A stretch of 12,258 bases of DNA from a virus (IMGVR_UViG_2585427784_000003:1-12258); one strand, 5' to 3'. Numbered from the stretch's first letter, positions 1-12,258 are shown. Translations and numbers: made by a program. Notes: generated by a model from the letters alone, not told the origin.

Positions 1-1284
1 TTACTTCTTCGCCTCTGCAACCACTTTACTACCCACGCCGCGGTTATTGTATTCCCACATGCGGTTGTAGTTAGTGTCATTCAGATTGCGCTGTATTTCG
101 TCGTTATCATCTACGCTGCCGGTATTACCCGCAAACGGACGATTAGAGATCACCGCATCGGCCCACGGTTTCGCCGTGTTAAAACCTTCGTTGATGGCGC
201 TATCACGGATCACCACCTGACCGTTGGTATTGGCATCAACATCCAGCGAGCGGCCCAGTTGCGCCACACCATCACCGAAAGCATTGAAACGGCTGTTTAC
301 GGCGAGGAAACCGTAGTAAATGTTGGACAGCGTAGCCGGTGCAAACACATACGCTTCTTGCTGAGTACGTGAGTTCACCACGCGGAATTCGGTGTTATCG
401 AACACCACTGCGCCGCGACCAGAAACGATATCCACATCCCCTTCAATGTAGCTGTTGGTCACCAGCGTACGCGGCTGACGATTCGTTTCCAGACGGTTCT
501 GCACACCGCTGTTGGTGACAAAGAAGGTGTTCTGACGACCGAGAATGTTAACGTTGTTAATCTGTACCTGGTCACCATCAGTACGCAGTGCCACCGCCGG
601 ATGGTTACCTGCATCTACGCTATCGCCCAGCGTGTTTTCGATGGTCAGATTTTGCAGTTGCAGGCCATTGTTTTGTGACCAGAAGACCGCAGAGCAGAGA
701 ACACCGATACTGTCGCTGCGTTTGCTCTGGCAGCTATCGTACATATACCACGCTGGTTTACCTGGCATATATTTGCCGCGCGGGTTGACGTCGTGACGCC
801 AGTCGGCAGGGCTCATGCCACCATCAAGGGAAAGCCCAATCTTCACATCAATCGGTTTTTCACCTGTACCGTACAGAGTAATTCCACCCGGAGCGGCAGG
901 GACATATACCGTTCCCTGATACTCACCAGGCATCACGGCAATATACTGGCGCTTGTTGGTACGCTTGATAATTGCCGCATCTACCGCCGCCTGAATCGTG
1001 GTATGCGTTACACCTTGAGTGCCCGCCGGGCCGACAACAAAGTCAGGTTGCGCAGGCAGGGTAATCGGGGAAGGATTCCACGCTGCAGCACCTGGTGTCA
1101 GGGATGCAAAATAGTGTTGAGCATCGAAATTCTGCGCTTCTTTTGCCGACAGAATCGGGCGAGAAGAGGTACCAGGCGCGGTTTGATCAGAAGGACGTTG
1201 ATCGGGCGGGGTTGAGCTACAGGCGGTCAGCGTCACGCCAAAAGCCAATGCCAGCGCCAGACGGGAAACTGAAAATGTGTTCAC
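1..1284 (-). CDS. ybhC: Host pectinesterase-family outer-membrane lipoprotein (YbhC-like), complete 427 aa
   Basis: Full-length 427-aa ORF with a lipoprotein signal and lipobox (MNTFSVSRLALALAFGVTLTAC). Sequence and length match what I recall for E. coli YbhC, and it sits directly next to the lambda att core as expected for the gal-side flank of attB-lambda. No alignment was run. Confidence 0.85.
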   Translation of the reverse strand: MNTFSVSRLALALAFGVTLTACSSTPPDQRPSDQTAPGTSSRPILSAKEAQNFDAQHYFASLTPGAAAWNPSPITLPAQPDFVVGPAGTQGVTHTTIQAAVDAAIIKRTNKRQYIAVMPGEYQGTVYVPAAPGGITLYGTGEKPIDVKIGLSLDGGMSPADWRHDVNPRGKYMPGKPAWYMYDSCQSKRSDSIGVLCSAVFWSQNNGLQLQNLTIENTLGDSVDAGNHPAVALRTDGDQVQINNVNILGRQNTFFVTNSGVQNRLETNRQPRTLVTNSYIEGDVDIVSGRGAVVFDNTEFRVVNSRTQQEAYVFAPATLSNIYYGFLAVNSRFNAFGDGVAQLGRSLDVDANTNGQVVIRDSAINEGFNTAKPWADAVISNRPFAGNTGSVDDNDEIQRNLNDTNYNRMWEYNNRGVGSKVVAEAKK

Positions 1285-1330
1285 AGGTTGCTCCGGGCTA
1301 TGAAATAGAAAAATGAATCCGTTGAAGCCT

Positions 1331-1345
1331 GCTTTTTTATACTAA
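1331..1345. other. attL: attL common core (lambda O region, GCTTTTTTATACTAA)
   Basis: Exact 15-bp lambda core at 1331-1345, with host-type sequence (tgaagcct) on the ybhC side and phage P' arm sequence (gttggcattataaaaaagcattgc...) on the int side. Confidence 0.93.
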
Positions 1346-1422
1346 GTTGGCATTATAAAAAAGCATTGCTTATCAATTTGTTGCAACGAACAGGTCACTA
1401 TCAGTCAAAATAAAATCATTAT
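1346..1422. promoter_or_regulatory. attP P' arm: IHF H' site and Int arm-type sites P'1 to P'3
   Basis: An IHF-like motif (tatcaatttgttg, about 1371-1383) is followed by contiguous arm-type repeats (aggtcactat, cagtcaaaat, aaaatcattat) at about 1391-1422. The spacing to the int stop, about 81 bp from core centre, is what I recall for lambda. Confidence 0.8.
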
Positions 1423-2489
1423 TTGATTTCAATTTTGTCCCACTCCCTGCCTCTGTCATCACGATACTGTGATGCCATGGTGTCCGACTTATGCCCGAGA
1501 AGATGTTGAGCAAACTTATCGCTTATCTGCTTCTCATAGAGTCTTGCAGACAAACTGCGCAACTCGTGAAAGGTAGGCGGATCCCCTTCGAAGGAAAGAC
1601 CTGATGCTTTTCGTGCGCGCATAAAATACCTTGATACTGTGCCGGATGAAAGCGGTTCACGACGAGTAGATGCAATTATGGTTTCTCCGCCAAGAATCTC
1701 TTTGCATTTATCAAGTGTTTCCTTCATTGATATCCCGAGAGCATCAACATGCAATGTTGTTGGGATGGCAATTTTTACGCCTGTTTTGCTTTGCTCGACA
1801 TAAAGATATCCATCTACGATATCAGACCACTTCATTTCGCATAAATCACCAACTCGTTGCCCGGTAACAACAGCCAGTTCCATTGCAAGTCTGAGCCAAC
1901 ATGGTGATGATTCTGCTGCTTGATAAATTTTCAGGTATTCGTCAGCCGTAAGTCTTGATCTCCTTACCTCTGATTTTGCTGCGCGAGTGGCAGCGACAGG
2001 GTTTGTTGTTATATGGCCTTCAGCTATTGCCTCTCGGAATGCATCGCTCAGTGTTGATCTGATTAACTTGGCTGACGCCGCCTTGCCCTCGTCTATGTAT
2101 CCATTGAGCATTGCCGCAATTTCTTTTGTGGTGATGTCTTCAAGTGGAGCATCAGGCAGACCCCTCCTTATTGCTTTAATTTTGCTCATGTAATTTATGA
2201 GTGTCTTCTGCTTGATTCCTCTGCTGGCCAGGATTTTTTCGTAGCGATCAAGCCATGAATGTAACGTAACGGAATTATCACTGTTGATTCTCGCTGTCAG
2301 AGGCTTGTGTTTGTGTCCTGAAAATAACTCAATGTTGGCCTGTATGGCTTCAGTGATTGCGATTCGCCTGTCTCTGCCTAATCCAAACTCTTTACCCGTC
2401 CTTGGGTCCCTGTAGCAGTAATATCCATTGTTTCTTATATAAAGGTTAGGGGGTAAATCCCGGCGCTCATGACTTCGCCTTCTTCCCAT
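1419..2489 (-). CDS. int: Lambda integrase (tyrosine recombinase), 356 aa
   Basis: ORF translation MGRRRSHERRDLPPNLYIRNNGYYCYRDPRTGKEF...REWDKIEIK is near-identical to lambda Int as I recall it, with the same length and the same position relative to att and xis. Confidence 0.97.
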   Translation of the reverse strand: MGRRRSHERRDLPPNLYIRNNGYYCYRDPRTGKEFGLGRDRRIAITEAIQANIELFSGHKHKPLTARINSDNSVTLHSWLDRYEKILASRGIKQKTLINYMSKIKAIRRGLPDAPLEDITTKEIAAMLNGYIDEGKAASAKLIRSTLSDAFREAIAEGHITTNPVAATRAAKSEVRRSRLTADEYLKIYQAAESSPCWLRLAMELAVVTGQRVGDLCEMKWSDIVDGYLYVEQSKTGVKIAIPTTLHVDALGISMKETLDKCKEILGGETIIASTRREPLSSGTVSRYFMRARKASGLSFEGDPPTFHELRSLSARLYEKQISDKFAQHLLGHKSDTMASQYRDDRGREWDKIEIK

Positions 2490-2685
2490 TTCTGATCCTC
2501 TTCAAAAGGCTACCTGTTACTGGTCGATTTAAGTCAACCTTTACCGCTGATTCGTGGAACAGATACTCTCTTCCATCCTTAACCGGAGGAGGGAATATCC
2601 TGCACTCGCGTACCCATCGACGAACTGTTTCAAGGCTTCTTGGGCGTCGCTGGCGTGCGTTCCACTCCTGAAGTGTCAAGTACAT
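2467..2685 (-). CDS. xis: Lambda excisionase, 72 aa
   Basis: MYLTLQEWNARQRRPRSLETVRRWVRECRIFPPPVKDGREYLFHESAVKVDLNRPVTG... matches lambda Xis from memory. Its 3' end overlaps the int start by 23 nt, as in lambda. Confidence 0.95.
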   Translation of the reverse strand: MYLTLQEWNARQRRPRSLETVRRWVRECRIFPPPVKDGREYLFHESAVKVDLNRPVTGSLLKRIRNGKKAKS

Positions 2686-2712
2686 CGCAAAGTCTCCGCA
2701 ATTACACGCAAG

Positions 2713-2732
2713 AAAAAACCGCCATCAGGCGG
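2713..2732 (-). terminator. Small GC hairpin plus U6 on the minus strand (intrinsic-terminator-like), overlapping the orf55 stop
   Basis: Minus strand reads g-ccgcc-tgat-ggcgg-tttttt: a 5-bp GC stem, 4-nt loop and six U. The stem is short, so function is uncertain. Confidence 0.3.
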
Positions 2733-2892
2733 CTTGGTGTTCTTTCAGTTCTTCAATTCGAATATTGGTTACGTCTGCATGTGCTATCTGCGCCCACAGC
2801 ATCCAGTGGTCATAGCAGTCGCTGATGTTCTCGGCTTCGATAACTCTGTTGAATGGTTCTCCATTCCATTCACCTGTGACTCGGAAGTGCAT
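2725..2892 (-). CDS. Lambda orf55-like small hypothetical protein, 55 aa (below the ORF-track length cutoff)
   Basis: Hand translation of the minus strand gives MHFRVTGEWNGEPFNRVIEAENISDCYDHWMLWAQIAHADVTNIRIEELKEHQAA then a stop. This matches my recollection of the small lambda ORF just upstream of xis in the pL operon. Confidence 0.6.
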   Translation of the reverse strand: MHFRVTGEWNGEPFNRVIEAENISDCYDHWMLWAQIAHADVTNIRIEELKEHQAA

Positions 2893-2942
2893 TTATCATC
2901 TCCAAAAAACAAACCCCGCCGTAGCGAGTTCAGATAAAAGAA

Positions 2943-2962
2943 ATCCTCGTCAGTGCGAGGAT
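2943..2962 (-). terminator. Hairpin (7-bp stem atcctcg/cgaggat) followed on the minus strand by a U-rich tract
   Basis: Perfect inverted repeat at 2943-2949 and 2956-2962. The minus strand continues ttcttttatctg. It lies at the boundary of the replaced ea8.5/ea22 slot. Confidence 0.25.
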
Positions 2963-3134
2963 GCTGTTCATTGCTGCTATACACTTTTTTGCTCTCAACG
3001 TAAGCGGTAGCCCATTCTGTTGGGTTGGTGCAGTTGCTTTTAGGAAATGCTATTTACCCCTTAAATGTCGGCTGAAAGAGCTAAAATCCATGCAAAAAAT
3101 TTACGCAATTTTGTGTATTATTGTGCAGTAAGTA

Positions 3135-3737
3135 ATGAGCTATTTTCTGCGCAAAAAATGGATGGTAAATTTGTCCGGGTCAGGAAAAATTTTATGGGCG
3201 CTAAACATGAAAAAAGATTCGTATCCTTATTTGATTTGCATGACAGTTTCAGGGCTGATCTTTATTTTCCTTTTCTTCTGGTGGCGGGCAGATATCTACA
3301 GGGTCACGTTTCTTAATCAGAGTATATCCCACTATTACATTCTGTTTAGCATGGGAATAGCTTTTCTGTTATCTCTGTTTTGGGTTAAGAAGGGGATAGT
3401 AAAACAAAGAGGCTGGAAGAGTCTGTCAGCATACCTTAAGGTTTATGCAGGGATGTGCATATTTGCTGGATTTTTTCTGATTATACCCCTTACGACACTA
3501 ACTTATTTTTTGCCTGGAGAGACATCGTCTTATGTTGCACCGTATCGGTATACTTCCGGTAGTTCAAAAAGTTGTTCTGGAGCTGAGGTGGATGACCCCG
3601 ATCTACATGAGAATATTCGCATTTGCTATCCGTATCGCAATTATGAGTACGATAATATTATCTATGTTGAAAAGAAAATTAATATATTAGGTGCGGTAGT
3701 GACATATGCACAGACCGCGCGTGATGATACTGAATGA
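3135..3737 (+). CDS. Cargo (moron) gene: integral membrane protein with three predicted TM helices and a ~70-aa soluble C-terminus; function unknown
   Basis: 200-aa ORF on the strand opposite to the pL operon, in visibly AT-rich DNA. Hydrophobic segments are LICMTVSGLIFIFLFFWW, YYILFSMGIAFLLSLFWV and VYAGMCIFAGFFLIIPLTTLTYF. Alternative in-frame starts lie at 3162 and 3207; none has a strong ribosome-binding site, so the start is uncertain. Confidence 0.5.
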   Translation: MSYFLRKKWMVNLSGSGKILWALNMKKDSYPYLICMTVSGLIFIFLFFWWRADIYRVTFLNQSISHYYILFSMGIAFLLSLFWVKKGIVKQRGWKSLSAYLKVYAGMCIFAGFFLIIPLTTLTYFLPGETSSYVAPYRYTSGSSKSCSGAEVDDPDLHENIRICYPYRNYEYDNIIYVEKKINILGAVVTYAQTARDDTE

Positions 3738-3773
3738 TATAGTATATAGCGGGCAAGTTTTAGTTAATTTATC

Positions 3774-3795
3774 GAGGTAATATAATTTACCTCGA
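3774..3795 (+). terminator. Hairpin downstream of the membrane-protein gene (8-bp stem cgaggtaa/ttacctcg, 6-nt loop)
   Basis: Perfect 8-bp inverted repeat about 37 bp after the stop at 3737. There is no clean U-run after it, so this is only a candidate terminator. Confidence 0.3.
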
Positions 3796-3947
3796 CTCGT
3801 TTGTTCTGGTATTAATATTTCGCTTTACGACCGATTTTTATCTGATGATATCATGCGGTTTTCATATACTGACTTACTGTCTTTTCTCCGTTAGCGATTT
3901 TCTCCTGCTCAGCGATGATTTTATCTTTGGCTTCTAGTTAATTTCGC

Positions 3948-4169
3948 TCACTTCGAACCTCTCTGTTTACTGATAAGCTCCAGATCCTCCTGGCAACTTG
4001 CACAAGTCCGACAACCCTGAACGACCAGGCGTCTTCGTTCATCTATCGGATCGCCACACTCACAACAATGAGTGGCAGATATAGCCTGGTGGTTCAGGCG
4101 GCGCATTTTTATTGCTGTGTTGCGCTGTAATTCTTCAATTTCTGATGCTGAATCAATGATGTCTGCCAT
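3948..4169 (-). CDS. orf73: Lambda exo-xis region Orf73: TraR/DksA-family C4 zinc-finger protein
   Basis: 73-aa ORF with the four-cysteine motif CCECGDPIDERRRLVVQGCRTCASC. Position and size fit lambda orf73, a TraR homologue. Confidence 0.8.
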   Translation of the reverse strand: MADIIDSASEIEELQRNTAIKMRRLNHQAISATHCCECGDPIDERRRLVVQGCRTCASCQEDLELISKQRGSK

Positions 4170-4223
4170 CTTCCATTAATCCCTGAATTGTTGGTTAATA
4201 CGCTTGAGGGTGAATGCGAATAA

Positions 4224-4246
4224 TAAAAAAGGAGCCTGTAGCTCCC
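4224..4246 (-). terminator. Intrinsic-terminator-like hairpin on the minus strand between orf61-like and orf73
   Basis: Minus strand reads (g)ggagc-tacag-gctcc(t) followed by ttttttatta. It starts about 20 bp after the orf61-like stop. Confidence 0.45.
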
Positions 4247-4267
4247 TGATGATTTTGCTTTTCATGT

Positions 4268-4579
4268 TCATCGTTCCTTAAAGACGCCGTTTAACATGCC
4301 GATTGCCAGGCTTAAATGAGTCGGTGTGAATCCCATCAGCGTTACCGTTTCGCGGTGCTTCTTCAGTACGCTACGGCAAATGTCATCGACGTTTTTATCC
4401 GGAAACTGCTGTCTGGCTTTTTTGATTTCAGAATTAGCCTGACGGGCAATGCTGCGAAGGGCGTTTTCCTGCTGAGGTGTCATTGAACAAGTCCCATGTC
4501 GGCAAGCATAAGCACACAGAATATGAAGCCCGCTGCCAGAAAAATGCATTCCGTGGTTGTCATACCTGGTCTCTCTCAT
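4268..4579 (-). CDS. orf61: Lambda orf61-like exo-xis protein (longest ORF 103 aa; an internal start at 4483 would give 71 aa)
   Basis: Its start overlaps the orf63 stop by 20 nt, which I recall as the lambda orf61/orf63 arrangement. The ORF is longer than the 61 aa I remember for lambda orf61; cause unknown. Confidence 0.5.
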   Translation of the reverse strand: MRETRYDNHGMHFSGSGLHILCAYACRHGTCSMTPQQENALRSIARQANSEIKKARQQFPDKNVDDICRSVLKKHRETVTLMGFTPTHLSLAIGMLNGVFKER

Positions 4580-4751
4580 CTGCTTCTGCTTTCGCCACCA
4601 TCATTTCCAGCTTTTGTGAAAGGGATGCGGCTAACGTATGAAATTCTTCGTCTGTTTCTACTGGTATTGGCACAAACCTGACTCCAATTTGAGCGAGGCT
4701 ATGTGCCATCTCGATACTCGTTCTTAACTCAACGGGAGATGCTTTGTGCAT
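4560..4751 (-). CDS. orf63: Lambda exo-xis region Orf63, 63 aa
   Basis: 63-aa ORF ([37 protein letters not shown]...) at the expected place between orf60a and orf61. Confidence 0.75.
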   Translation of the reverse strand: MHKASPVELRTSIEMAHSLAQIGVRFVPIPVETDEEFHTLAASLSQKLEMMVAKAEADERDQV

Positions 4752-4906
4752 ACAGCTCCCCGTTTATTATTTATCTCCTCAGCCAGCCGCTGTGCTTTCA
4801 GGGGATTTCGGATAACAGAAAGGCCGGGAAATACCCAGCCTCGCTTCGTAACGGAGTAGACGAAAGTGATCGTGCCTACGCGGATATTATCGTGAGGATG
4901 TTTCAT
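4724..4906 (-). CDS. orf60a: Lambda exo-xis region Orf60a, 60 aa
   Basis: [60 protein letters not shown]. The start codon overlaps the exo stop by 4 nt, as in lambda. The ORF track begins two codons earlier, at 4912. Confidence 0.8.
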
Positions 4907-5583
4907 CGCCATTGCTCCCCAAATACAAAACCAATTTCAGCCAGTGCCTCGTCCATTTTTTCGATGAACTCCGGCACCATCTCGTCAAAACTCGCTATAT
5001 ACTTTTCATTCCGCTCAATCACGACATAATGAAGGCCTTCACGCTTCATACGCGGGTCATAGTTGGCAAAGTACCAGGCATCTTTTCGCGTCACCCACAT
5101 GCTGTACTGCACCTGGGCCATGTAAGCCGACTTTATGGCCTCGAAACCACCGAGCCGGAATTTCATGAAATCCCGGGAGGTAAACGGGTATTTCAGCTCA
5201 AGGCCATTGCCGTCACTGCATAAACCATCGGGAGAGCAGGCGGTGCGCATACTTTCGTCGCGATAGATGATCGGGGATTCAATAACATTTACGCCGGAAG
5301 TGAACTCAAACAGGGTTCTGGCGTCGTTCTCGTACTGTTTTCCCCAGGCCAGCGCTTTAGCGTTAACTTCCGGAGCCACACCGGTGCAAACCTCAGCTAG
5401 CAGGGTGTGGAAGTAGGACATTTTCATGTCAGGCCACTTCTTTCCTGATCGGGGCTTTGCTATCACGTTGTGAACTTCTGAAGCGGTGATGACGCCGAGC
5501 CGTAATTTGTGCCATGCATCATCCCCCTGTTCGACAGCTCTCACGTCGATCCCGGTACGCTGCAGGATAATGTCCGGTGTCAT
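4903..5583 (-). CDS. exo: Lambda exonuclease (Red-alpha), 226 aa
   Basis: [65 protein letters not shown]...[11 protein letters not shown] is near-identical to lambda Exo from memory. Confidence 0.97.
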
Positions 5584-5684
5584 GCTGCCACCTTCTGCTC
5601 AGTGGCTTTCTGTTTCAGGAATCCAAGAGCTTTCACTGCTTCGGCCTGTGTCAGTTCTGACGATGCGCGAATGTCGCGGCGAAA
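5580..5684 (-). pseudogene. bet: 3' remnant of bet (Red-beta): only the last ~34 codons, no start codon
   Basis: The minus-strand frame ending in the ATGA overlap with exo reads ...[34 protein letters not shown] then a stop, matching the lambda Bet C-terminus. Upstream the frame reaches a stop at about 5724 with no ATG, and homology ends at about 5684. Confidence 0.85.
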
Positions 5685-5906
5685 TACCAGAACATGCGGG
5701 CCAATGCGCTTACTGATGCGGAATTACGGCGCAAGGCTGCCGATGAACTGACTTGTATGACCGCGCGAATTAACCGTGGTGAGGCGATACCTGAACCAGT
5801 AAAACAACTTCCTGTCATGGGCGGTAGACCTCTAAATCGTGCACAGGCTCTGGCGAAGATCGCAGAAATCAAAGCGAAGTTCGGACTGAAAGGAGCAACT
5901 GTATGA
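5685..5906 (+). pseudogene. P: 3' remnant of replication gene P (C-terminal ~74 codons); an ATG at 5694 gives a 70-aa ORF
   Basis: Plus-strand frame reads YQNMRANALTDAELRRKAADELTCMTARINRGEAIPEPVKQLPVMGGRPLNRAQALAKIAEIKAKFGLKGATV then a stop, matching the lambda P C-terminus from memory. It begins directly at the bet junction, and the stop overlaps the ren start. Confidence 0.85.
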
Positions 5907-6184
5907 CGGGCAAAGAGGTAATTATTCATTATCTGGAGACGCACAAGAGCTTCTGTGCGCAGGACGTTGCTGCGGCAACAGGTGTGACAGTAACCTGCAT
6001 AAATCAGGCAGCAGCTAAAATGGCGCGGGCAGGAATCCTGGTCATTGATGGTAAGGTCTGGCGAACGGTGTATTACCGGTTCGCTACCAGAGAAGAACGG
6101 GAAGGAAAGGTGAGCACGAACCTGATTTTTAAGGAGTGTCGCCAGAGTGCCGCGATGAAGCGGGTGTTGGCGGTATATGGGTGA
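5903..6184 (+). CDS. ren: Lambda Ren protein, 93 aa
   Basis: MTGKEVIIHYLETHKSFCAQDVAAATGVTVTCINQAAAKMARAGILVIDGKVWRTVYYRFATREEREGKVSTNLIFKECRQSAAMKRVLAVYG matches lambda Ren from memory. Ribosome-binding site aaggag lies upstream, and the start overlaps the P stop (ATGA). Confidence 0.85.
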   Translation: MTGKEVIIHYLETHKSFCAQDVAAATGVTVTCINQAAAKMARAGILVIDGKVWRTVYYRFATREEREGKVSTNLIFKECRQSAAMKRVLAVYG

Positions 6185-6479
6185 TTAGTTATTACTTGAT
6201 TTGATGGTTATCTCGAAAACATCCAATCAAATTTAATGGTTTGCTTTGTGCGGGGAACTATAACAATGTTTCTAGCTTGGTGCTGTATGTATTAGTGAAT
6301 TAGTAGGGAATATATCCACACATTGATTAACACAAAAATATTTTAGATATTAAATGTAACTCAAAGGTTGAGTAATAATGGTTGTGTAGCGTATAACAGG
6401 ATGCTGAGGTAGTATTAAACAATGAATAAATCTGATTGACAAGCACCAGATAATACTGCGGGTCAATCATTAGACATGA

Positions 6480-6512
6480 ACGCCACTAGTTACTGAGAGT
6501 AACTAATGGCGT
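6480..6512. repeat. Near-perfect 15-bp inverted repeat (acgccactagttact / agtaactaatggcgt, one mismatch, 3-nt loop) in the AT-rich spacer
   Basis: Read directly from the sequence. It lies about 45 bp beyond the 3' end of the HD-domain gene and about 300 bp after ren. It may be a terminator or a protein-binding site. Confidence 0.3.
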
Positions 6513-6554
6513 TGTGTTTATAGTTAAGATGTTTTTTAAAACATCAGGGGGGCT

Positions 6555-8102
6555 CTACTTGTCTTTTTTAATATGATCAATCTCATCATTAAGACATTTA
6601 TCTATTTTTTTTATTAACACATTAATTTCTTCGGTGTTTTGGAGTTGAGTTGTCTTAGAAACAAAAACTCGAATAAAGAATTTAACATAGTGATAGGGTT
6701 GAAGTACATCGTTATACTTACATAAATCATTTATTGTATACTTGCCGCCTGTTTCTTTTTTTATTATTTTAGCTTGACTTGTATCGATATCTTTAAAGTT
6801 ATCTTCAATCTGAAAATCAAGAACCCATTCATCTCCTTTTAAATTATCCTCAATGATTTTGTTGATTTTCTTAGATATATTTTGTTTATATTCTTTGTAT
6901 CTGTTGTCGGAAATGTTAACATTAGAAAACGTGTGTTTTTTTTCATATATTTTTTTCCAAACATTTCTATCAACAATATCTTGAATTATAGCTTGAGAAT
7001 TTTTATCTAATGTGTTTTTAAGAGTGTTTTCTAAAAACGTTTTGTCTGGGTTTTCACGATAAAAGTGTTTGATGGACTCAATGAGAGTGTTTTTAGATTT
7101 TAAAGAGACAACATCATCAGTTTTTTTTCTAGAACACGCTTTGTTAAGCATCGCAGATAGTGCACGATTGGTCTTATGAAAATAAACTTGACTATAAAGC
7201 CCACTTCTTGCATTGGCAAATTCTAGTATTGAATCCATACCACTTTCTTTATATGCCAGGTAAACACTATTTTCAACTTTCACAGGAATAAATGACATTA
7301 ATAATCGTCCATAATCATAAATCCCATATTTAACGCCGGAGAAGTAGCTATCTCTAAGTAGGTAGTCCATTCTGTCCGCATCTATAGGTGAAGATGATAT
7401 GATTGAACCTAATAAAGGATATACATTTACTCCCTCAATGTTATTTTTAAAATCATATCTTTTATCAACAATTTTTATAATGCTTTCTGGATTAATAGCC
7501 GCTATGTTTTCTTTATAGACATCGTCGTCATTTGATTTATCTTGGGCTTCATTTTTTAATTCTTCAATAATTTCTTTAATAAAAATACATGATACTTGTT
7601 CGTGGGTTAACTTGTCATTATCACTTAAAGATATAATCTTATCGTATTGTTTATTTCCTTCAGTTTTGCATTTTTCTTTGAAATCTTTTACGGATATTGC
7701 AAAACTATCGAATTGGTGGGCAAGTGGGCCATGCCCAACATCGTGTAACAATGCTGCAATACGTAACTCCTGTATAAGACTTGAAGGCATTTTTTTTATA
7801 TCTAAATATAGATCAATGCCCATATTTTTTCGATTGTAAATTAGTGCATTTATATCAATATTTTTTAATATTTCATACGATAAATGCATTACACCGACAG
7901 AGTGTTCAAAGCGAGAGTGCATTGCAGAAGGAAATACTTTATATAGAAACGTGTTCTGCCTGATATCTCGTAGTCGTTGGAATAAAGGATGGTCAATTAT
8001 CTTTTTTTCTAGCTTAGTTATTCGAATCACTCCATGTATGGGATCTAAAAACTTCCCCAGAAGTAAGTCTTCAAAGTTCTCAAGTTTGTTTTTGTTTGTC
8101 AT
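6555..8102 (-). CDS. HD-domain dNTP triphosphohydrolase-like protein (SAMHD1/dGTPase family) with a long K/N/D-rich C-terminal extension, 515 aa
   Basis: Motifs seen in the translation: PLFQRLRDIRQ...HSRFEHSVGV, LLHDVGHGPLAH and DADRMDYLLRD, the metal-binding H...HD...D set of SAMHD1/Dgt-type enzymes. Ribosome-binding site aaggaaa precedes the ATG at 8102. The gene is visibly AT-rich. Confidence 0.85.
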   Translation of the reverse strand: MTNKNKLENFEDLLLGKFLDPIHGVIRITKLEKKIIDHPLFQRLRDIRQNTFLYKVFPSAMHSRFEHSVGVMHLSYEILKNIDINALIYNRKNMGIDLYLDIKKMPSSLIQELRIAALLHDVGHGPLAHQFDSFAISVKDFKEKCKTEGNKQYDKIISLSDNDKLTHEQVSCIFIKEIIEELKNEAQDKSNDDDVYKENIAAINPESIIKIVDKRYDFKNNIEGVNVYPLLGSIISSSPIDADRMDYLLRDSYFSGVKYGIYDYGRLLMSFIPVKVENSVYLAYKESGMDSILEFANARSGLYSQVYFHKTNRALSAMLNKACSRKKTDDVVSLKSKNTLIESIKHFYRENPDKTFLENTLKNTLDKNSQAIIQDIVDRNVWKKIYEKKHTFSNVNISDNRYKEYKQNISKKINKIIEDNLKGDEWVLDFQIEDNFKDIDTSQAKIIKKETGGKYTINDLCKYNDVLQPYHYVKFFIRVFVSKTTQLQNTEEINVLIKKIDKCLNDEIDHIKKDK

Positions 8103-8163
8103 GAGGCTTTCCTTTTGCTGTAGTTATAATACGAAATTTAAATAGTAATGATGTTTATAGTTT

Positions 8164-8192
8164 CAATGTGTTATCTAATGGTTAACACATTG
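8164..8192. promoter_or_regulatory. Perfect 10-bp inverted repeat (caatgtgtta, 9-bp spacer, taacacattg) about 60 bp upstream of the HD-domain gene start; candidate operator
   Basis: Perfect palindrome arms read directly. No U-run follows on either strand, so a protein-binding site is more likely than a terminator. Confidence 0.3.
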
Positions 8193-8460
8193 TGATGTAG
8201 CATATCAATATGGATTCATATGTTCAATTGGTCTGTGGAGTTTAGTTATGAATAAGATTGATTCTGGTAATACTTTGTAGTTTAAGCTAGAGGCGGGATT
8301 CGTGATGTTCAAATCAGTATGTAATGGAGGTTGTGCATTAGTACTTGCTGCTGGAAATTAAAAATAAAGTTGCAAGTAATCGACGTTTTCCGAGAGGAGG
8401 ATGTAGCATCGCTGACCAAAAAGTATCAACGATGCCTGTTTTGTTTTAACTACAAATTAA

Positions 8461-9804
8461 TTAAATTGCATCTGCAAACTCTGGGATTTTTCGCTCAAGT
8501 ATGATTGATGAGTTGCTGTTGTCGCTTTTTTTATTTTCATGATTACGAATAGCCAATGACTCATTAAAGTCTTTTGCGACTGCTGTCTCAATAAATTCAA
8601 TTTCTGAATCAGAGTGTTTTTTAACAGCTTCTTTGATCTCATCCAGAGTAACATAGAAAAACTCTTTTCTACGATTTACAAGATTGACTCTCTTTTTATC
8701 GAAGACATCATGTAGTTTTTTTTCTAATGATGGAGCGTCCTCCGAATAAATCATGGCATGCACATCAAAAATAAAAGGAACAGATGCATCACCAAGCTCA
8801 TTTACACGGTCTTGTGGATCAAGACGTCGTGTCATGCCTATTTTATAAACATTCTCCCCAAAAGAACCTATGTTCGAAATAATATAAACATGACCTTGTT
8901 TGGTTTGTTGTGCCATGGATAATGCTCTTTGATGCTTTGATTCAGCCTGCGACAAACTCTGTTCTAGTTCGGCAATGCGATTTTCGAGGCGCTGCTTCAT
9001 GTCACCAGTAACTTTTTCCATTTCCTTTCTTGCAGCTTCAATTGCTTTTTTATAACGGCGCTCTTCTGCCTCTGCGTCTTGCATGGCCTTTTCTATTTCT
9101 CGTTGTGCACGCTCCTCCTCTCTCATTTGTGCCCTTATTTCTGCCTGTTCTTCTTTTTCTTTCTGTTTTTGCTCACGATATTCATGGGTAAGCCACAACT
9201 CCTCAAGTTTTTTATTAAGGTATTTAGTATTTATATATATGTGATTTTGCTCGTTTAGTTTATTTATGGCCTCAAATGCCTTTGTGATGCGTTCTTCCAT
9301 TTTAGTGATATTTTTCCACGTGCAATTACTAATTGCAGCATCACATTCATTATTAAATGCTCTAGTAGTTAGCCTAATATTTCTGTCTGTCATTTTTTTA
9401 CCCTCTGCTCGAGAGCCTTCAACAGTCCATTGGGTTGTGCAATATACTGCACCAGAGTGGGTTTTATCCCGCAGCATTAATTTCTGTTCATCCCTGATGG
9501 ATTTTATTTTGTTTTTAAATTGCTCTGAATCTTCAAAATTAAAATGAGGTTCGTAAAATCCTAGTTCGGCTAGTTCAACATCTTCTGAATAAATAGAAAT
9601 TTGCTTTACTAGCTTATCATATATTTCTTTCTTCTCTTTATAAGTTCTTCTTAGTTCTTGGATTTGTTTATTGATACCATCCATTTTTTCAATGGTGTTT
9701 GTTAGTTCATTATTGGCATTTTCTTTTACTTTTTGGGACTCTTCTTTTATAATGGAGTATTCTTGCTCTGTTTTCTCAATAAGCTTCTTACATTCCTCTT
9801 CCAC
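8461..9804 (-). CDS. DUF4041 plus T5orf172 (GIY-YIG-like) protein with a central coiled coil, 447 aa as called; it probably begins upstream at 9964 (see frameshift finding)
   Basis: DUF4041-like block (...GFYEPHFNFEDSEQFKNKIKSIRDEQKLMLRDKTHSGAVYCTTQWTVEGSRAEGKKMTDRNIRLTTRAFNNECDAAISNCTWKN...), then an E/K/R/Q-rich coiled coil, then a T5orf172-like block (GHVYIISNIGSFGENVYKIGMTRRLDPQDRVNELGDASVPFIFDVHAMIYSEDAPSLEKKLHDVFDKKRVNLVNRRKEFFYV). The called start is a GTG with no ribosome-binding site. Confidence 0.85.
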   Translation of the reverse strand: MEEECKKLIEKTEQEYSIIKEESQKVKENANNELTNTIEKMDGINKQIQELRRTYKEKKEIYDKLVKQISIYSEDVELAELGFYEPHFNFEDSEQFKNKIKSIRDEQKLMLRDKTHSGAVYCTTQWTVEGSRAEGKKMTDRNIRLTTRAFNNECDAAISNCTWKNITKMEERITKAFEAINKLNEQNHIYINTKYLNKKLEELWLTHEYREQKQKEKEEQAEIRAQMREEERAQREIEKAMQDAEAEERRYKKAIEAARKEMEKVTGDMKQRLENRIAELEQSLSQAESKHQRALSMAQQTKQGHVYIISNIGSFGENVYKIGMTRRLDPQDRVNELGDASVPFIFDVHAMIYSEDAPSLEKKLHDVFDKKRVNLVNRRKEFFYVTLDEIKEAVKKHSDSEIEFIETAVAKDFNESLAIRNHENKKSDNSNSSIILERKIPEFADAI

Positions 9805-9856
9805 ATTAAAATAATCTGCAAAGCGAGATTTGTATTCTTCATTTTTTTGATTGCTA

Positions 9857-9964
9857 TCACTTAATTCTAATTGTATTTTTTTTGATGCGTTTGATTGCAG
9901 CTATATATAGAACAAGAACAACCAATAAAAATATGATTGCAAGTAATAGTGGAGTTTGAGTCAT
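9857..9964 (-). CDS. 35-aa ORF encoding a single transmembrane helix (MTQTPLLLAIIFLLVVLVLYIAAIKRIKKNTIRIK); probably the displaced N-terminus of the DUF4041 gene
   Basis: ATG at 9964 is preceded by aagga with about 9-nt spacing. The ORF ends 53 bp before the GTG of the 447-aa ORF, and the two frames differ by one nucleotide across an A8 run (coding strand; T8 at 9876-9883 on plus). Confidence 0.45.
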   Translation of the reverse strand: MTQTPLLLAIIFLLVVLVLYIAAIKRIKKNTIRIK

Positions 9965-10390
9965 TCGTGCTATTCCTTACGGACAATTTAAGACGTTTTG
10001 TATTAAATCCTGTTCAATGTGTATGCGGGTGATTGCTACCGCTTACAATCTTCATAATTATCAGTTAGATAGACTCGCTAGTAAATAATTTCATTTTTTG
10101 CAATATTCTTATTGAATATTTCAATTTATGAAATGAGCTCTTTATCCTTTCAAGGCGAAAGGTTTCTTCTTCGGAAATATTTGCTCTCGTGTGACGTATA
10201 AAGGCCTTTGATTTTTAAAAAACAGTAGGAAATAATATAGTTACTGTCGGCCTGAACACCCGGCGGTGGGGTTGCGCTAAACGGGGACGTTTATGCGCAC
10301 ATACAATCTAAACTCTCTTCTCCCTTCACAGATGCAGAAATGCACCTGCGATTTTTTGCATCCAACGTTTGACCTCTGCGGAGGTGAAGC

Positions 10391-10846
10391 ATGAACCTAC
10401 CACAAGATGGCATCAAATTACATCGTGGCAACTTCACCGCTATCGGCCAGCAGATCCAGCCTTATCTGGAGGACGGAAAATGCTTTCGCATGGTGCTTAA
10501 ACCGTGGCGTGAGAAACGCAGTCTTTCCCAGAGTGCACTCAGCCACATGTGGTACAGCGAAATCAGTGAATACCTTATCAGCAGGGGTAAAACGTTCGCC
10601 ACTCCAGCTTGGGTAAAAGATGCTCTCAAACACACATATCTCGGTTATGAAACCAAAGACCTGGTTGATGTCGTAACCGGTGATATCACCACTATCCAGT
10701 CGTTACGCCATACCTCCGACCTTGATACCGGAGAGATGTATGTCTTCCTGTGTAAGGTTGAAGCCTGGGCGATGAATATTGGCTGCCACCTGACTATTCC
10801 GCAGAGCTGCGAGTTCCAGCTGCTGCGTGATAAGCAGGAGGCGTAA
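10391..10846 (+). CDS. ybcN: DLP12-type nin-region protein YbcN, 151 aa
   Basis: [67 protein letters not shown]... matches E. coli YbcN from memory. Ribosome-binding site ggaggtg lies upstream. Confidence 0.88.
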
Positions 10847-11016
10847 TGGCTACACCGCTTATTCGTGTCATGAACGGACACATCTACAAAATACCAAATC
10901 GTCGTAAGCGTAGGCCTGAGCTGAAACCATCCGAAATACCAACACTGCTCGGATATACCGCCAGCCTGGTTGATAAAAAATGGTTGCGACTGGCAGCAAG
11001 GAGGAATCATGGCTGA
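10846..11016 (+). CDS. ninE: NinE, 56 aa (below the ORF-track length cutoff)
   Basis: Hand translation: [56 protein letters not shown]. The start overlaps the ybcN stop (TAATG). Confidence 0.8.
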   Translation: MATPLIRVMNGHIYKIPNRRKRRPELKPSEIPTLLGYTASLVDKKWLRLAARRNHG

Positions 11017-11299
11017 TTTGAGAAAAGCAGCGCGTGGTCGGGAATGCCAGGTAAGAATCCCTGGCGTATGTAATGGCAATCCTGAAACGTCTGTACTGGC
11101 ACATATCCGGCTGGCTGGATTGTGCGGTACCGGTATCAAACCGCCAGACCTGATTGCCACCATTGCATGTTCTGCCTGTCACGACGAGATCGACCGTCGC
11201 ACGCATTTTGTTGACGCTGGATATGCAAAAGAATGCGCGCTGGAAGGTATGGCGAGAACGCAGGTTATCTGGCTGAAAGAGGGGGTAATTAAGGCGTGA
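11009..11299 (+). CDS. ybcO: DLP12-type YbcO (putative nuclease), 96 aa from the ATG at 11009
   Basis: [96 protein letters not shown], preceded by aggagg. The ORF track starts earlier, at 10970. Confidence 0.85.
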
Positions 11300-11658
11300 A
11301 TACCTACAATATCACATTACCCTGGCCGCCGAGCAATAATCGCTATTACCGCCATAATCGCGGGCGCACGCACATCAGCGCAGAGGGGCAGGCATACCGC
11401 GAAAACGTCGCCCGAATCATTAAAAACGCAATGCTGGATATCGGCCTGGCTATGCCTGTGAAAATCCGCATTGAGTGTCACATGCCGGATCGCCGTCGCC
11501 GTGACCTGGATAATCTACAAAAGGCCGCTTTTGACGCACTCACCAAAGCAGGTTTCTGGTTGGATGATGCTCAGGTCGTTGATTACCGCGTTGTGAAGAT
11601 GCCGGTTGTCAAAGGTGGAAAGCTGGAACTGACCATCACTGAACAGGGAGATGAATGA
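11296..11658 (+). CDS. rusA: Holliday-junction resolvase RusA, 120 aa
   Basis: [95 protein letters not shown]... matches E. coli RusA from memory. Confidence 0.95.
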
Positions 11659-11795
11659 TGTTTGAGTTTTATATGGCAGAACTTCTTCGCCACCGCTGGA
11701 TGCGCCTGCGCTTATATCGTTTCCCCGGTTCTGTTTTGACCGATTACCGAATACTGAAGAATTACGCCAAAACACTGACAGGAGCAGGAGTATGA
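11655..11795 (+). CDS. ylcG: Small nin-region protein YlcG, 46 aa (below the ORF-track length cutoff)
   Basis: Hand translation: [46 protein letters not shown]. The start overlaps the rusA stop (ATGA). Confidence 0.7.
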
Positions 11796-11880
11796 AGTCA
11801 GAGATAACAATCAACTAATACTGTTTTGTTGATTTTTGCTTGTAATTGGCGTTCTGGTCTGAGTTTTGTGGAGTAAGTTG

Positions 11881-12258
11881 ATGCGTGATATTCAGATGGT
11901 TCTTGAGCGTTGGGGAGCGTGGGCGGCTAATAATCATGAAGATGTGACCTGGTCGTCCATTGCCGCCGGTTTTAAGGGATTAATTCCTTCAAAAGTAAAA
12001 TCTCGCCCACAATGTTGTGACGATGACGCGATGATCATTTGCGGGTGCATGGCCCGTCTGAAAAAGAACAACAGCGATTTGCATGATTTATTGGTGGACT
12101 ATTATGTCGGCGGCATGACTTTTATGGCGCTTGCACGTAAGCATGGGCGATCTGATTGTTGGGTTGGCAGGATGCTCCAGAAAGCTGAGGGCGTAGTGGA
12201 GGGTATGCTGATGGTGTTGGATCTCCGATTGGAGATGGATGCTGATTGTTCGAAATAA
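11881..12258 (+). CDS. quuD: Late-gene antiterminator Q (DLP12 QuuD-like), 125 aa from the ATG at 11881
   Basis: [75 protein letters not shown]... matches DLP12-type Q from memory. Ribosome-binding site ggag lies 7 nt upstream, and the stop codon is the last three bases of the window. Confidence 0.8.

Follow-up and report, generated by a model that had tools for sequence, protein, structure and literature searches.

A frameshifted SNIPE gene and a putative SAMHD1-type dNTP triphosphohydrolase as adjoining cargo modules in the ren-nin slot of a lambdoid prophage

SNIPE, also named PD-lambda-1, is an inner-membrane-anchored nuclease with a DUF4041 and a GIY-YIG domain that cuts siphovirus DNA during injection (PMC13190303, the 2026 Nature paper 'A membrane-bound nuclease directly cleaves phage DNA during genome injection'). 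The protein requires DUF4041 and residue E414 and becomes highly toxic once the membrane helix is removed (PMC13190303), and it is protective as a single cloned gene (PMC13190303; Vassallo et al., 2022, PMC9519451). To prevent self-cleavage, the helix and the nuclease must be parts of one polypeptide. Depletion of deoxynucleoside triphosphates (dNTPs) is another known logic of defence, followed by SAMHD1 and by bacterial deoxyguanosine triphosphatase (dGTPase) and deoxycytidine triphosphate-deaminase systems (bioRxiv 10.1101/2021.04.26.441389). The Dgt-type anti-phage dGTPases (Tal et al., 2022), including Vdg (PMC13519002) and CloA of Clover (PMC12265719), belong to the HD superfamily; the known ones deplete dNTPs, consist of a single gene or of a gene and a regulator, and often lie on mobile elements. 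Ogmios, a cassette of the Vibrio cholerae superintegron, is a single HD-domain gene for a putative dGTPase and has been validated as anti-phage (bioRxiv 10.1101/2024.07.02.601686). The present analysis concerns a viral stretch of 12,258 nucleotides (IMGVR_UViG_2585427784_000003:1-12258, the whole of which is called the window), in which an AT-rich island between ren and the nin region of a lambdoid prophage carries a frameshifted SNIPE gene and, next to it, a gene for an HD-domain protein that is very probably a dNTP triphosphohydrolase of the SAMHD1 type, as judged from its sequence and predicted fold.

The island is best explained as defence cargo in a variable slot, composed of two autonomous single-gene modules, a broken SNIPE and a SAMHD1-type enzyme, that arrived by recombination; we assign this explanation a probability of about 0.68. 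The guanine-plus-cytosine (GC) fraction, taken over fixed intervals, is 0.328 across the island (6185–10272) versus 0.475 to its left (1–6184) and 0.492 to its right (10273–12258), and in sliding windows it stays at 0.26–0.38 between about 6200 and 10200 with values near 0.50 on each side. An AT-rich island in this place had been proposed from the sequence alone (the original prediction), and the composition agrees. The fall begins at the ren stop codon (6184), where the left edge had been drawn; the right edge had been put at 10330, but the foreign DNA ends at 10272, and from 10273 onward the sequence is common to about 2700 Escherichia coli genomes and phage 82. All long open reading frames (ORFs) of the island lie on the minus strand, at 6555–8102 (515 amino acids) and 8461–9804 (447 amino acids). 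The two large minus-strand genes of the original prediction are therefore present, although the second ORF is the remainder of a frameshift-split gene of 500 codons that starts at 9964, a break that had gone unremarked. Their described A/T runs and the abundance of lysine, asparagine and isoleucine are likewise found: runs of seven or eight T occur seven times in the HD gene and five times in the SNIPE gene, and the three residues make up 30% and 26% of the respective proteins. The spacer between the genes (8103–8460) measures 358 base pairs as reported, but its supposed perfect palindrome is a perfect 10-base-pair inverted repeat whose arms are separated by nine nucleotides, and hence is not contiguous.

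The 447-residue ORF matches the PADLOC profile PD-Lambda-1 with E=3e-191 over profile positions 60–485 of 491, and its Pfam domains are DUF4041 (PF13250, 1e-19), and the GIY-YIG-like T5orf172 (5.8e-17) and MUG113 (1.3e-19). The profile extends about 59 N-terminal positions beyond this ORF. An ATG at 9964 opens a frame for a hydrophobic helix (9964–9880), and this frame stops after 35 codons, leaving a residual minus-strand ORF at 9857–9964 that encodes the SNIPE membrane helix only (MTQTPLLLAIIFLLVVLVLYIAAIKRIKKNTIRIK, followed by a stop). The plus strand carries a T8 run at 9876–9883, which is A8 on the coding strand and the site of the +1 frameshift; intact relatives have A7. Removal of one T yields a 500-residue protein that differs by one amino acid from that of NZ_AP021895 and carries E223, N250, W257, E264, K305, I308, T319 and E414 in the numbering of PMC13190303, E414 being the catalytic glutamate of the GIY-YIG/T5orf172 domain. 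Judged by sequence, the second gene (8461–9964, minus strand) is SNIPE/PD-lambda-1 by descent and this copy is a pseudogene.

Compared with the published protein, the copy in the window is essentially the same allele, with the N-terminal membrane helix, DUF4041, the GIY-YIG/T5orf172 nuclease and E414, and like the SNIPE of the inducible phage PhiR26_1 it belongs to a lambdoid prophage and occupies the same ren-nin slot. It differs in having A8 for A7, which uncouples the membrane anchor, and in having an HD gene as neighbour; the term 'HD domain' occurs zero times in PMC13190303. That SNIPE occupies this slot is already known; the break in frame at the anchor adds a minor new point. GCA_000713395.1 and an independently made Logan assembly, that of SRR1186674 (99.98% identical to the window, two substitutions), share the T8 run, so the frameshift is probably real. 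With the A8 frameshift between them, helix and nuclease are not in one polypeptide here, and the first in-frame start of the remainder, as read from the sequence, is a GTG without an obvious ribosome-binding site; together these two features suggest a null allele. This copy is most likely null, and slippage during transcription of the A run could give no more than traces of the full-length protein. As SNIPE without its anchor is toxic in the published work, the downstream ORF is presumably not translated. Other E. coli copies of SNIPE have been inactivated independently, by IS1, by IS5 or by a different frameshift, and roughly 5 of 40 sampled SNIPE-carrying E. coli matches are disrupted; in NZ_CP116411 (about 6544–6577) a one-nucleotide deletion near window position 9730 splits the gene.

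The HD gene (6555–8102, minus strand) is intact, with a ratio of nonsynonymous to synonymous substitution rates of 0.25 against a second E. coli allele. Its match to the Pfam HD profile is modest (1.2e-6). A phmmer search of the PDB finds human SAMHD1 at 2.5e-26 over residues 19–430, along with the bacterial dNTPase EF1143 of E. faecalis (2o6i) and the Aquifex protein 2hek, and a profile built from 69 homologues matches SAMHD1-type PDB chains exclusively, with no Dgt-type chain matched even at E<=10. An AlphaFold2 model built with the 69-sequence alignment has a predicted local distance difference test score (pLDDT) of 87.1 and a predicted template modelling score (pTM) of 0.89. When the model is compared with the PDB by Foldseek, the top match is SAMHD1 (E 3e-17, template modelling score 0.62–0.70) over about 515 columns, that is, the full length, and the two-lobe SAMHD1 fold is evident.

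The residues R64, H67, H120, D121, H124, H129, H167, D241, D243, R244, Y247, D251, R299, Y307, H309 and K310 are invariant in all 69 homologues, and E168 is kept in 68. Leaving aside D241, the counterparts in SAMHD1 are R164, H167, H206, D207, H210, H215, D311, K312, Y315, D319, R366, Y374, H376 and K377; the pair H167/E168 is equated with H233/E234 of SAMHD1 from the motif and not from the alignment. Q42 and R45, which correspond to the SAMHD1 allosteric-site residues Q142 and R145, are also invariant in the 69 sequences, and D37, the counterpart of D137, is present in the window, the position being D in 44 of the homologues and N in 18. The family thus resembles human SAMHD1, EF1143 and the Aquifex enzyme in the fold of both lobes and in the metal-binding and catalytic residues. 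It differs from SAMHD1 in its low sequence identity (about 22%), in the absence of a SAM domain, in insertions of its own at residues 135–227 and 325–424 that vary between alleles, and in being carried on phages, integrons and defence islands.

Assignment to the Dgt-type defence dGTPases was considered and rejected: the PADLOC dGTPase model (2023 release) reaches only E=0.0025 and 15 bits, over the HD motif region alone, and the TIGR01353 score is 21 bits, far under the cut-off of 152. Though of the same superfamily as the anti-phage dGTPases, the protein in the window falls in a different HD clade, and unlike Clover it has no partner nucleotidyltransferase. A point of likeness to Ogmios is that one member of the family is itself a V. 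cholerae integron cassette. This homologue (GCA_024564525.1, 3519–5021; 43–45% identical) lies in an array of small cassettes with acetyltransferases, the RelE, ParE and YoeB toxin-antitoxin pairs, DUF645 and DUF3709 as neighbours, typical of a superintegron. In contrast, the published BLAST homologue set of Ogmios overlaps the DefenseFinder dGTPases and an Ogmios homologue appears hexameric, and no abundant V. cholerae cluster was found among the relatives of the V. cholerae family member. Compared by description and not by sequence, the HD protein is probably outside the Ogmios family, which seems Dgt-like. The defence logic suggested for the HD gene is a known one, but its clade is, as far as we found, without a reported test in bacteria.

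Homologues of the HD protein at 64–77% identity, together with a large set at about 45%, are found in Enterobacterales, Vibrionaceae, Aeromonas, Shewanella and beyond. Among phage protein families, the HD family is equivalent to phrog_35128, whose function is unknown. The copies in Proteus, Enterobacter and Serratia are lone insertions, and these single-gene loci are 78–80% identical to the window over the coding sequence, up to about 235 nucleotides upstream and up to about 120 nucleotides downstream. A copy with 64% identity lies on the opposite strand of a P2-like prophage (IMGVR_UViG_2724679353_000001, 6001–7512), flanked by the gpV spike gene on one side and the lysis and head-completion genes on the other, so that a second temperate-phage backbone, unrelated to the lambdoid one, carries the HD gene as cargo. 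Within 6 kb of the gene at 21 gammaproteobacterial HD loci, a CBASS operon is found near the Proteus homologue, Zorya II directly downstream of the Psychromonas homologue, DarG (of DarTG) adjacent to that of Vibrio splendidus and Lamassu near that of Vibrio sp. J1-1; a Dgt-type dGTPase and PDC-M45 are also among the neighbours. Apparent 'phage' matches to the HD protein in Klebsiella were discarded, being host DNA at the edge of predicted prophages and not phage cargo.

These settings bear on the strongest of the alternatives, an unlikely one in our estimate, in which the HD protein is a housekeeping or fitness gene of the nucleotide pool, serving dNTP homeostasis or mutation avoidance as lysogenic-conversion cargo, and no immune effector. 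Bacterial enzymes of the SAMHD1 clade such as EF1143 were first described as general dNTP hydrolases. The homologues of Klebsiella and Serratia are found among metabolic genes, the former in an apparently stable chromosomal spot beside ordinary metabolic genes and the latter adjoining proBA, so some family members may be housekeeping. Such a role fits poorly with a sporadic distribution (0.4% of E. coli) and low GC content, with carriage on two unrelated temperate-phage types and an integron cassette, with the repeated adjacency to CBASS, Zorya, DarTG or Lamassu, and with surface segments that diverge strongly around a fixed active site.

Along with the Klebsiella and Serratia loci, several other considerations weigh against defence cargo as the explanation. 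PADLOC gives the HD protein no call for any defence model, which also counts in favour of housekeeping, and we know of no experiment showing anti-phage or dNTPase activity for this HD family. The proximity of a known defence system, seen at about 6–7 of the 21 loci, is a plain count without a formal background model. A constitutive dNTPase would harm both host and prophage, and some regulation must therefore exist. Finally, SNIPE is broken and the prophage is defective here, and the island may no longer be selected as a unit.

A quite different activity for the HD protein, the hydrolysis of signalling nucleotides, (p)ppGpp or nucleic acid in the service of prophage counter-defence or regulation, is very improbable. 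The HD superfamily is catalytically diverse, the Pfam match taken alone is weak, and SAMHD1 itself has been claimed to act as an RNase or nuclease. However, what is invariant is the entire substrate and catalytic set of SAMHD1, beyond H..HD..D, and the match spans both lobes; profile searches with the HD protein gave no match to HD-GYP, RelA/SpoT or Cas3-type families.

The relation between the two genes was examined through their distribution. Of 5426 complete E. coli genomes, 2738 have the sequence of the right flank, 131 have the SNIPE gene and 21 have the HD gene. Every one of the 21 HD copies adjoins SNIPE in this slot, whereas 110 of the 131 genomes with SNIPE have it in the same ren-ybcN slot without the HD gene. 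In the SNIPE-only prophages and in PhiR26_1, whose copy is annotated PD-lambda-1, the layout is ren-SNIPE-orf33-ybcN. The SNIPE module of the window (8405–10272, minus strand), which comprises the gene and its native upstream region and stands alone in the same slot in other prophages, is 97–98% identical to a SNIPE-only prophage and to PhiR26_1, and the alignment places the boundary between the modules at 8404/8405. The HD module (6182–8404, minus strand; 2.2 kb), consisting of the SAMHD1-like gene and its own conserved upstream and downstream non-coding flanks, stands in place of 217 nucleotides of the SNIPE-only layout, including the last seven codons of ren. The ren of SNIPE-only prophages is accordingly seven codons longer, and divergence begins exactly after the residues ...AVYG. 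As far as these alignments tell, the HD module was added beside an older SNIPE module, and the island is two modules and not one. At 8405, the exact boundary, there is a single-base difference in non-coding DNA, GTAGC here and GTAAGC in three related genomes.

An obligate two-gene defence system, in which the HD enzyme works with or regulates the nuclease, might have been expected from the invariable adjacency of the HD gene to SNIPE in E. coli, on the same strand and 358 base pairs apart, and from the existence of two HD alleles, 16% different in protein, in exactly this arrangement. The distribution largely refutes it, and we consider it highly unlikely. SNIPE occurs without the HD gene in most genomes that carry it and in a viable phage, and it defends as a single cloned gene. 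The HD gene has a conserved promoter-like region of its own. A tblastn search with SNIPE (E<=1e-5) on 113 HD loci gave matches confined to six E. coli-type viral contigs; at the 107 HD loci outside this E. coli lineage, with flanks of up to 8 kb, no SNIPE homologue was found, so the pairing is not conserved. The shared arrangement of the two alleles is itself accounted for by their junctions. In five genomes the HD allele is 84% identical in protein while the flanks are 95–100% identical and the junctions are the same, which indicates that the insertion happened once, in an ancestor, and that alleles later recombined within the gene.

The second allele is a mosaic. In NZ_CP051727 (6870–8417) and four other genomes the centre of the gene is 82–90% identical to the window, and its flanks and the SNIPE gene are 98–100% identical. 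Most of the amino acid changes fall in residues 135–227 and 325–424 and often alter charge, with the catalytic motifs unchanged.

At the junctions 6182, 8404 and 10272 no direct repeat, target-site duplication, terminal inverted repeat or attC site is present, and no transposase or integrase was found at the island junctions or among its ORFs, so that recombinational replacement fits better than transposition. Insertion by a transposon, an insertion sequence or integron-type site-specific recombination is the least probable of the alternatives. The V. cholerae relative is an integron cassette, and the HD module keeps its flanks and its 3' stem-loop as it moves between genera; yet those hallmarks are missing at all three positions, and the stem-loop, as read from the sequence, lacks the R''/R' core sequences of attC.

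Much of the original prediction stands after these comparisons. It had found no flanking direct repeats, had considered the slot variable and had favoured a recombinational module swap over a transposon, all of which agree with the junctions, with the genome counts and with the different cargo that other prophages carry in the ren-nin slot. The single two-gene island it described is instead two nested modules, and neither the identities of the genes nor the SNIPE frameshift had been noted. The co-occurrence of the two genes that it proposed to examine holds for the 21 E. coli genomes and does not extend beyond this prophage lineage. As a further instance of cargo, the Stx1 prophage of E. coli O157:H7 DEC4E has a SIR2-family gene beside the repressor, and its ren-ybcN slot contains two small plus-strand ORFs of unknown function; there, defence-like cargo is at a different position of the same backbone.

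The non-coding flanks of the HD gene contain several conserved features. A promoter-like block, TTGAAC - 17 nt - TGaTATGCT (8199–8227, minus strand), is near-invariant upstream of the gene and is the most conserved non-coding stretch across four genera. A related pattern precedes all homologues of the 75% class and occurs nowhere else among 102 loci. RNAalifold gave no convincing structure for the HD upstream region (−2.4 kcal/mol), and the block is therefore taken as a putative promoter or operator, on the strength of its hexamers, and not as an RNA element. A generic scan for promoters and terminators gave sites no more numerous than in shuffled sequence. Directly downstream of the putative −10 element lies the inverted repeat of the spacer (8164–8192, CAATGTGTTA-N9-TAACACATTG). 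Shuffling the spacer by dinucleotides gave arms of at least 10 nucleotides in 5 of 1000 trials, and shuffling the whole island gave them in 21 of 200, so the repeat is only mildly unusual. It is partly kept in Enterobacter with both arms changed (ATATGTT..AACATAT), weakened in Serratia and lost in Proteus, and a role as operator or 5' stem-loop is uncertain.

On the other side of the gene, about 40 nucleotides past its stop codon, a 13-base-pair stem-loop (6479–6513, minus strand) is conserved across genera and in the P2-like prophage copy. Its RNAalifold consensus over seven homologous loci is −17.5 kcal/mol, and two of its pairs show compensatory double changes. No U-tract follows, so it is not a standard intrinsic terminator; it may act as a terminator or as a stabiliser of the mRNA 3' end. 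A 47-codon ORF downstream of the HD gene (6327–6470) was rejected because its reading frame is poorly conserved and, in Serratia, lacks a start codon. Scans of the whole window against Rfam (E<=1) and for tRNA genes gave no matches.

If the island is defence cargo, its most likely function, by analogy with the characterised systems, would be defence against superinfection in two layers, DNA cleavage at entry and dNTP depletion, the latter resting on the predicted dNTPase. In the lysogen, both genes would be transcribed against the direction of the early-right operon, apparently with a separate promoter for each. An intact SNIPE would destroy incoming siphovirus DNA at the membrane, as established in PMC13190303, and the HD enzyme would lower dNTP pools such that phages past the entry step could not replicate. 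How the enzyme might be held back before infection is a matter of speculation; candidates are nucleotide allostery, the inverted repeat by the putative −10 element, and antisense silencing through pR read-through at induction. A bolder proposal, which we regard as possible but tentative, is that the HD gene founds a prokaryotic SAMHD1-clade family of antiviral dNTPases, distinct from the Dgt type and probably from Ogmios, and that it forms a self-contained cassette, with promoter block and 3' stem-loop, moving between lambdoid and P2-like prophages, integrons and defence islands and acting in E. coli as a second, post-entry layer behind SNIPE.

The island belongs to a lambdoid prophage integrated at attB-lambda and adjacent to ybhC. 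From the start of the window the order is chromosomal ybhC, a lambda-type integrase, excisionase, exo, a C-terminal P fragment, ren, the island and orf33-ybcN-ninE-ybcO-rusA. The ren ORF (5903–6184, plus strand; 93 amino acids) has the same length as that of NZ_AP021895, and its 3' end forms the left junction of the island. On the right the backbone restarts (10273–10394, plus strand) with a conserved leader and a 33-codon ORF, orf33 of phage 82, which overlaps the start of ybcN. The window is 100% identical to contig JORW01000034.1 of GCA_000713395.1. NZ_AP021895, the closest complete genome (99.5% identical), has about 5 kb that the window lacks, which comprise the 5' part of bet, gam, kil, the repressor, cro, a cII-like gene, O and most of P. 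The prophage is defective, having neither immunity nor replication region, because of this deletion, which is also present in the independent Logan assembly of SRR1186674. At its junction (5685–5686) the 3' end of bet, on the minus strand, abuts a 70-codon P fragment at 5694–5906. A second AT-rich patch (3135–3737, plus strand; GC about 0.38), between xis and a TraR/DksA-like gene, contains a 200-residue ORF that has no Pfam or PADLOC match; only its C-terminal 88 residues match phrog_1416, of unknown function. It may be another cargo gene.

Taken as a whole, this is a prophage defence island of an ordinary sort, in which one candidate is of reasonable interest. The locus illustrates how cargo slots of prophages gather defence genes, by stepwise addition of modules and then by allelic recombination within a cargo gene. 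The broken SNIPE provides a natural allele for the question of how cells tolerate SNIPE decay; the break lies at the point where losing the anchor should kill a cell that expressed the remainder. The HD module is a compact 2.2-kb candidate that comes with its native putative promoter. If its assignment is correct, nucleotide-depletion immunity in bacteria would extend to true SAMHD1-clade enzymes, and antiviral dNTPases of bacteria and of humans would be tied more closely in evolution.

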